A stretch of DNA of 64,000 nt from Escherichia coli (GTDB taxonomy: Bacteria > Pseudomonadota > Gammaproteobacteria > Enterobacterales > Enterobacteriaceae), in assembly GCF_003018255.1 (NCBI RefSeq), contig NZ_CP027440.1; one strand, given 5' to 3'. The notes under the pieces are model-generated. The model saw nothing but the letters and a program-made list of their open reading frames with translations. It was not told where the DNA came from and searched no databases. A program made the position numbers and the translations under genes. This document shows positions 34,644 to 35,759 of this stretch, in pieces (position 1 is the first letter of the stretch; every line of letters starts with the position of its first letter).

Positions 34644-35264
34644 TCATATTCTCAACAAAACACTTTTTAATGCCTTTGCGAATTCATCCAGACTTATATT
34701 GTCAATTTTTTGCCCAACGACGACTGACTCCGAAACATCGGCCATTGCGGGCCATCGCGTTTTGTAATCAGCATAAATTGCAACAACAGGGGTATTATAG
34801 GCACTTGCCATATGTAATATTGAGGTGTCAGGAGTTATTGCAATATAAGCATCTTTTATGATTGCTGCTGAACGTTTAATCGAGGGTGATAAGGATAAAC
34901 GGTAGACATTATTATAACAATCCACTAATGCCCTGGCTTTATCTTCCCCTTTGGGTCCATAAACGATCACTATTGGAATATCTGTTTCACTTTGAATTTT
35001 TGCTATTAGATTTTCTGCAATCGATAATGAAAATGTACGTTCCTGCGAGCTACCGTCTAAATTGAGCGCAATGTAAGATCCTAACGATCGCATTTCCTCG
35101 CGTACCTCATCGAGTACATCATCGCTTAATGGCAATTCATATATTGACCTGACTGCCGGAAAACCCGCCTCACGCATCATAAATGCCCATGTCATGGGTA
35201 CAGGAGCCCGGAGATTCTGATCCATCCGGGACGCGTTCTTACACAAAGGGGAATAGCACTTCAT
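34644..35264 (-). pseudogene. yeeL: Glycosyltransferase family 9 (heptosyltransferase-like), C-terminal fragment
   Basis: 206 aa ORF; co-directional with the upstream 159 aa fragment. Confidence 0.6.
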
Positions 35265-35279
35265 GGTTAAACCGACGAC

Positions 35280-35759
35280 CTAGAAATTCGTTTTTGCTTT
35301 CAACTGACTGATAAATATCATCGTTTTCAGGTTCTTTTTACGCATCGCCTCTATACAAAGATCCGGCGTACCGTATTGCAGTGTTATGTTCTTCGCTAAA
35401 TCTTTTATTTCTTTTAATGTTGCGTGATCCTGCATAGTCATTGTGACTAATGTTAATTTAGTCTGTTCAAGTTTGAGCGCATTAAAGACTTCTAAATTAA
35501 TTGTCGACGTAACAATTAATAGATGCTTAATTTTATGCAATTCAAGCGCCCGAATAACAGGAAAGATAGCCATAGCATCGCCAATCTGATCGGGAATATG
35601 TATGACAATAAAGTCTGTTTTTTCAATATTAAAATTATAAGCTTTATAATCGTAGTAACTAAATGCAATACGTCTCAACAATGATACTAAAAACATAACT
35701 AACCTCGCCTCCCTACTGGTTATAATGCAATGCAGTCTATCAGAATCATCAGGGTGCAA
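35280..35759 (-). pseudogene. yeeL: Glycosyltransferase family 9, N-terminal fragment
   Basis: 159 aa ORF split from the downstream fragment by a stop; yeeL is also split in K-12. Confidence 0.6.

Follow-up and report, generated by a model that had tools for sequence, protein, structure and literature searches.

The window analyzed here, a stretch of 64,000 nucleotides from Escherichia coli, carries the gene order mtfA, tRNA-Asn, yeeJ remnant, yeeL, shiA, amn, and yeeN. Based on these neighboring genes, the locus between the yeeJ remnant and shiA was identified as yeeL, in agreement with an earlier sequence-only reading of the same DNA. That reading had described two co-directional open reading frames (ORFs) at positions 34644–35759, and exactly these limits were recovered from the ORF listing: an upstream minus-strand ORF at 35280..35759 with 159 aa, counted from a mechanical TTG start, and a downstream minus-strand ORF with 206 aa. 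Both share one frame (35759 − 35264 = 495 = 3 × 165) without any indel, and they are separated by a single TAG and five sense codons. Translated on the minus strand, positions 34644–35696 yield 350 codons with one sole internal stop at codon 139, and this frame is colinear with intact 1053-nt alleles and free of gaps. The true start is the ATG at 35696, with a GAGGT located 5 nt upstream; as all intact alleles are annotated from this ATG, the stretch from 35697 to 35759 belongs to the leader and is not coding. A promoter scan of positions 34300–36100 returned nothing above the expectation from shuffled sequence. For better orientation, all features are summarized in Table 1.

Table 1. Features of the yeeL locus and of its surroundings within the window.
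Feature	Coordinates	Strand	Basis or remark
Whole yeeL reading frame, 350 codons plus TAA stop	34644..35696	−	Pseudogene through one internal amber codon
Premature TAG, codon 139 (CAG, Gln in intact alleles)	35280..35282	−	Sequence and allele comparison
Upstream ORF as 138-aa N-terminal fragment; N-terminal Rossmann domain with invariant G39-D40	35283..35696	−	
Downstream ORF, 206 aa from Met145; C-terminal nucleotide-sugar-binding domain with D290-T291-S292...H295	34644..35264	−	
Shine-Dalgarno-like GGGAGGCGAGGT 5' of the true ATG at 35696	35702..35713	−	Read from the sequence
Mechanical 5' extension to TTG; noncoding, part of the yeeL leader	35697..35759	−	Annotated starts of intact alleles
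Divergent yeeL-shiA intergenic region, 314 nt	35697..36010	.	Identical to strain N1420 (yeeL intact)
yeeJ remnant, about 1.8 kb	32549..34382	+	
Hairpin and T-run terminator after yeeJ	34404..34427	+	Strong
tRNA-Ser(CGA)	31155..31244		
tRNA-Asn(GTT), first copy	32236..32311		Four copies with identical scores
tRNA-Asn(GTT), second copy	40395..40470		
tRNA-Asn(GTT), third copy	42219..42294		
tRNA-Asn(GTT), fourth copy	44628..44703		
Cobalamin riboswitch, full-length	48921..49095	−	107.5 bits
STnc230 sRNA match	50162..50245	+	76 bits

The lesion itself is a single C→T transition that turned CAG into TAG at codon 139. The first position of this codon is T in the window and C in all 16 other alleles of the same length (1053 nt) that were compared, and TAG is consequently the derived state; the ancestral CAG can be read directly in the strains ATCC 25922 and N1420. 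The latter is the closest complete genome with regards to the flanking regions, and its allele and WP_000480495.1 (present in ATCC 25922, BHUCD01, M15, and 97_3250) are the nearest intact relatives, each with 7 differences to the window in 1053 nt. WP_000480495.1 resides in the same genomic context and deviates in 4 of 350 codons, one of them being the stop; unlike the window, it retains Gln139, and its annotation is that of an intact glycosyltransferase family 9 protein of 350 aa. The window has four private changes, namely V30I, a synonymous change at A43, Q139*, and A348L, the last of which requires two base substitutions.

As one base is all that separates the window from the intact alleles at codon 139, an error during sequencing or assembly could in principle have produced a false stop. 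However, the identical TAG, linked to V30I and the synonymous A43 change, was recovered from independent NCBI, ENA, and Logan assemblies, which leaves an error with practically no credibility. The TAG allele is therefore real and clonal. The exact 138-aa product was found on at least 63 contigs, including one of E. coli HVH 194, where it is listed as a hypothetical protein, and the exact 206-aa product on about 12 contigs; one Logan assembly shows no difference from the window. HVH 194 and a contig from a gut metagenome share V30I, the synonymous A43 change, and Q139*, but lack A348L, so that the stop is older than the split into at least two sublineages and is nevertheless confined to a small clade. 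Of the complete RefSeq E. coli genomes, 4,964 contain the segment, and a 61-nt probe centered on the TAG matched none of them exactly; the best matches were one base off.

The differences between the window and HVH 194 at the 3' end of yeeL are clustered within the final 12 nt (34647–34655), where GCG is replaced by TTG (A348L) and ATT by ATA. B2-type genomes cease to match the window just downstream of the gene, near 34493–34502. Together, the clustered differences and the end of the match suggest that a recombination or mosaic junction lies close to the 3' end of yeeL.

With regards to its rate of change, yeeL does not stand out from its surroundings. An accelerated divergence was considered and rejected, as yeeL differs by 0.66% from its nearest relatives and the flanking genes shiA, amn, and yeeN by 0.4–0.8% from the best complete genomes. 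Relaxed selection following the stop was considered as well, for which the 4–5 lineage-private changes are too few to decide.

The sequence-only reading had noted that the same split is annotated in K-12 and had taken this as a sign of an old, fixed pseudogene. Its first part holds insofar as yeeL of MG1655 (b4497) is indeed annotated as a pseudogene. The K-12 gene occupies the same locus (yeeJ, yeeL, shiA, amn), is 1053 nt long, and contains one in-frame nonsense codon as well. However, the two lesions are independent: the stop of K-12 and E. coli B is a TAA at codon 235, that of the window a TAG at codon 139, and a total of 45 out of 1053 nt differ between the window and K-12. The second part, a pseudogene of some age that is fixed in the species and common to K-12, would fit the annotated internal stop of b4497. 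However, the K-12 61-mer is exactly present in only 765 of 5,426 complete genomes (approximately 14%), the TAG of the window in none of those probed, and of 22 genomes that were sampled with a systematic spread, 14 have a yeeL that RefSeq lists as intact. Considering also the low dN/dS ratio of the intact alleles (approximately 0.18, see below), both the age and the fixation of the pseudogene are refuted, and we regard a shared ancient relic as next to impossible.

Among the disrupted genomes, five further lesion types were encountered, and the segment is missing in one more genome. Besides Q235* in K-12/B, these comprise a stop at codon 292 (MB53), a 10-bp deletion (PD23), IS1 insertions (H11 and H23), and an IS66 insertion (WWCOL-315). 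In a large protein collection, the main cluster of full-length YeeL consists of 10,923 distinct sequences, and the fragment clusters contain hundreds to about 2,000 sequences, many of them labelled Shigella sonnei. These truncated S. sonnei entries may add to the independent inactivations of yeeL. Several distinct lesions next to mostly intact alleles mark yeeL as a polymorphic gene rather than an old fixed pseudogene: it is intact in most E. coli, has been knocked out recurrently and independently, and is no relic throughout the species.

For the intact E. coli alleles, a median Nei-Gojobori dN/dS of 0.18 was calculated (range 0.08–0.29, 53 pairs). Judged by these ratios, the intact alleles are under purifying selection, which clearly speaks for a functional yeeL wherever it has been kept. 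Homologues of full length were recovered with identities of 52–66% from E. albertii, Pseudocitrobacter, Erwinia, and Rosenbergiella, and with 36% from Halomonas. The alignment to intact homologues, by which the sequence-only reading had proposed to check its claim, gave single-chain relatives in other genera, and Gln139 is at least 90% conserved across the 21 homologues aligned, which represent six or more genera.

For the assignment to a protein family, both sequence and structure were utilized. The downstream ORF matches the Pfam family PF01075 (GT9) with 30.8 bits and the intact alleles reach 29.7–39.4 bits (cut-off 22), with the match covering the C-terminal domain only; the upstream ORF on its own matches no Pfam family. 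A PDB profile search returned mostly spurious alphaRep/HEAT matches, caused by an IGDAMAxFPxIR motif, next to weak WaaC matches (E = 0.002), and a fold search was therefore needed to place the family. The AlphaFold (AF2) model, calculated for the intact allele with 21 homologues and not for the truncated products of the window, displays a two-domain GT-B fold with a pLDDT of 85.6 and a pTM of 0.84. The top Foldseek matches are the GT9 structures 3TOV, WaaF (1PSW), and WaaC (2H1H/2GT1/6DFE) with E values from 1e-11 to 1e-13, and the structural matches to GT9 enzymes span the full length (TM 0.62–0.72). In this model of the intact protein, the upstream ORF corresponds to the N-terminal Rossmann domain of the GT-B fold, the strands of which end at residues 136–139, and residues 142–162 form a loop of low confidence.

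The conserved residues point in the same direction. In the alignment of 21 homologues, D290, T291, and H295 do not vary and S292 reaches a conservation of at least 90%; the downstream ORF of the window contains the motif as well. This DTSxxH motif aligns with DTGLSH of WaaC and DSGLMH of WaaF, and hhalign placed PDTSILHMA of YeeL on VDTGLSHLT of WaaC. G39-D40 is invariant after strand 1; a local alignment puts both residues on the G-D of WaaF, while the local alignment to WaaC misplaced them. YeeL shares with WaaC and WaaF (CAZy GT9; PDB 2GT1/2H1H and 1PSW) the GT-B fold and the C-terminal D(T/S)(G/S)xxH, with G39-D40 as a putative counterpart of their G-D (catalytic base) after strand 1, but differs from them by an identity of just 12–15% and by the position of yeeL outside the waa cluster. 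The NCBIfam equivalogs of LPS heptosyltransferases were not reached either (TIGR02193 with 37.9–39.6 bits versus 185.3; others with 14–24 versus 135–569). With regards to sequence and model, intact YeeL is best described as an enzyme of a divergent, heptosyltransferase-like GT9 subfamily with a GT-B fold. The PF01075 match and the GT-B fold of the intact allele thereby also confirm the earlier impression that the two ORFs together resemble one family-9 glycosyltransferase.

On this basis, the consequences of Q139* can be outlined. As the promoter region is unchanged, the yeeL mRNA is probably still made. Translation from the ATG at 35696, which has a good Shine-Dalgarno sequence, must end after residue 138, where the model places the terminus of the final beta-strand in the N-terminal Rossmann domain. 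The truncated product thus keeps the acceptor-side domain with G39-D40 and lacks the C-terminal nucleotide-sugar-binding domain with DTSxxH. Met145 lies inside the intact protein, where it is conserved, and its ATG is found 15 nt past the TAG in the same frame. Within the 30 nt preceding it (AAAACGAATTTCTAGGTCGTCGGTTTAACC), no Shine-Dalgarno match is found at a usable distance, and none at all within 13 nt. Since a ribosome-binding site is lacking, Met145 would be a weak site of reinitiation at best, the downstream ORF is probably not translated efficiently, and little or no C-terminal fragment should be made. The enzyme is thus predicted to be inactive.

The position of the stop nevertheless raises the question of a functional split enzyme, in which the 138-aa N-terminal domain and a 206-aa C-terminal domain, reinitiated at Met145, associate into an active GT-B. 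In glycosyltransferases of the Alg13/Alg14 type, two such halves associate non-covalently. In the model, the yeeL stop falls at the end of the last strand of the N-terminal domain and just before the loop 142–162, each fragment retains one invariant motif, and the nearby in-frame ATG would allow for termination-reinitiation. However, the yeeL halves lack the second start signal, modelled residues 140–190 go with the N-terminal side and the linker and would therefore be on the wrong fragment, and the aligned homologues from other genera are all single chains of 349–377 aa. As the split is furthermore confined to one sublineage and found in none of the 4,964 complete genomes, we consider an active two-chain enzyme very improbable. 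In line with this, nothing indicates two selected products, and programmed frameshifting, which the sequence-only reading had named besides two functional polypeptides as an argument against a pseudogene, is absent from two ORFs that lie in the same frame with no indel.

A leaky amber codon has to be weighed as well. Suppressors such as supE/glnV insert Gln at UAG and thereby exactly revert CAG→TAG mutations. If near-cognate readthrough inserted Gln at this UAG, full-length YeeL would arise from the otherwise intact yeeL frame in small yet useful quantities, and the allele would be a hypomorph and not a null. However, basal UAG readthrough is very low in wild-type E. coli, the sequence around the stop is the same as in the intact alleles and offers no recoding signal, and no other lineage conserves the stop, so that we consider a useful residual activity very improbable. 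With one premature in-frame stop compared to the intact alleles, a pseudogene, as originally proposed, is the best reading of the split. It is very likely that yeeL of the window is a loss-of-function pseudogene that originated from one C→T transition, specific to its lineage and independent of the lesion in K-12/B. Q139* is therewith an ordinary knockout by nonsense mutation, specific to one lineage, in a gene known to be polymorphic.

The proximity of yeeL to an adhesin gene invites a comparison with the bacterial autotransporter heptosyltransferases (BAHT) TibC and Aah, which are heptosyltransferase-like and are encoded beside the gene of their partner adhesin. In E. coli, yeeL likewise adjoins the gene of the inverse-autotransporter adhesin YeeJ, and a glycosylation of YeeJ by YeeL was considered. 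It was rejected based on genomic context, uncoupled integrity of the two genes, and the lack of similarity to TibC. In contrast to tibC and aah, the yeeL homologues examined in Erwinia, Rosenbergiella, Halomonas, Pseudocitrobacter, E. albertii, and an Escherichia lineage with 72% identity have no adhesin gene as a neighbor. In Pseudocitrobacter, the divergent shiA-yeeL pair is kept with mtfA directly downstream, and in the 72%-identical Escherichia lineage the yeeL homologue is found between hchA and mtfA. In B2-type strains, yeeJ has decayed and yeeL is intact; in K-12, B, MB53, and PD23, yeeJ is intact and yeeL is dead. Furthermore, TibC appeared neither among the PDB sequence-profile matches nor among the top Foldseek matches.

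The shiA-yeeL pair without yeeJ in Pseudocitrobacter implies that yeeL was resident first and that yeeJ was inserted beside it. In Erwinia and Rosenbergiella, an MFS transporter gene lies approximately 155 nt upstream of the yeeL homologue in the same direction. The yeeJ gene of the window is itself a remnant, compared to 7–8 kb for intact yeeJ and approximately 2.8 kb for the B2-type remnant of ATCC 25922. Its first ORF encodes the N-terminus and, of the 279 positions of the inverse-autotransporter beta-domain, no more than the first 123, and the second, which overlaps the first out of frame, encodes the C-terminal invasin D3/D4 domains. On the HVH 194 contig (10670–12417), a gene for a TonB-dependent receptor is located directly past the yeeJ remnant, which may represent the edge of an island at tRNA-Asn. 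The window is without such an insertion, and mtfA, tRNA-Ser, and tRNA-Asn (31155–32311) adjoin yeeJ directly. yeeO, cbl, and nac lie among the four tRNA-Asn(GTT) genes of the window, an arrangement that is also seen in K-12. Further away, the cobalamin riboswitch is situated upstream of the cobU-cobS-cobT region, with the STnc230 match nearby.

Full-text literature searches on yeeL returned no functional study, but mostly unrelated surnames or tables from strain engineering. As a conserved GT9 subfamily encoded outside the waa cluster, intact YeeL could modify a surface glycan, and its repeated loss would then be adaptive rather than neutral decay, e.g., as an escape from phages or from immune recognition; this idea seems improbable to us. 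In K-12 strain engineering, yeeL serves as a pseudogene integration site (PMC11566304), and a secondary integration site of phage phi80 has been placed between yeeJ and yeeL in K-12 derivatives (PMC6016239), corresponding to approximately 34383–34643 in the window. While the result matters little in itself, it corrects an assumption made at the level of annotation: yeeL is polymorphic, and the lesion in the window is a separate event from that in K-12. The status of yeeL as a neutral pseudogene in K-12 engineering does not carry over to strains with an intact allele.
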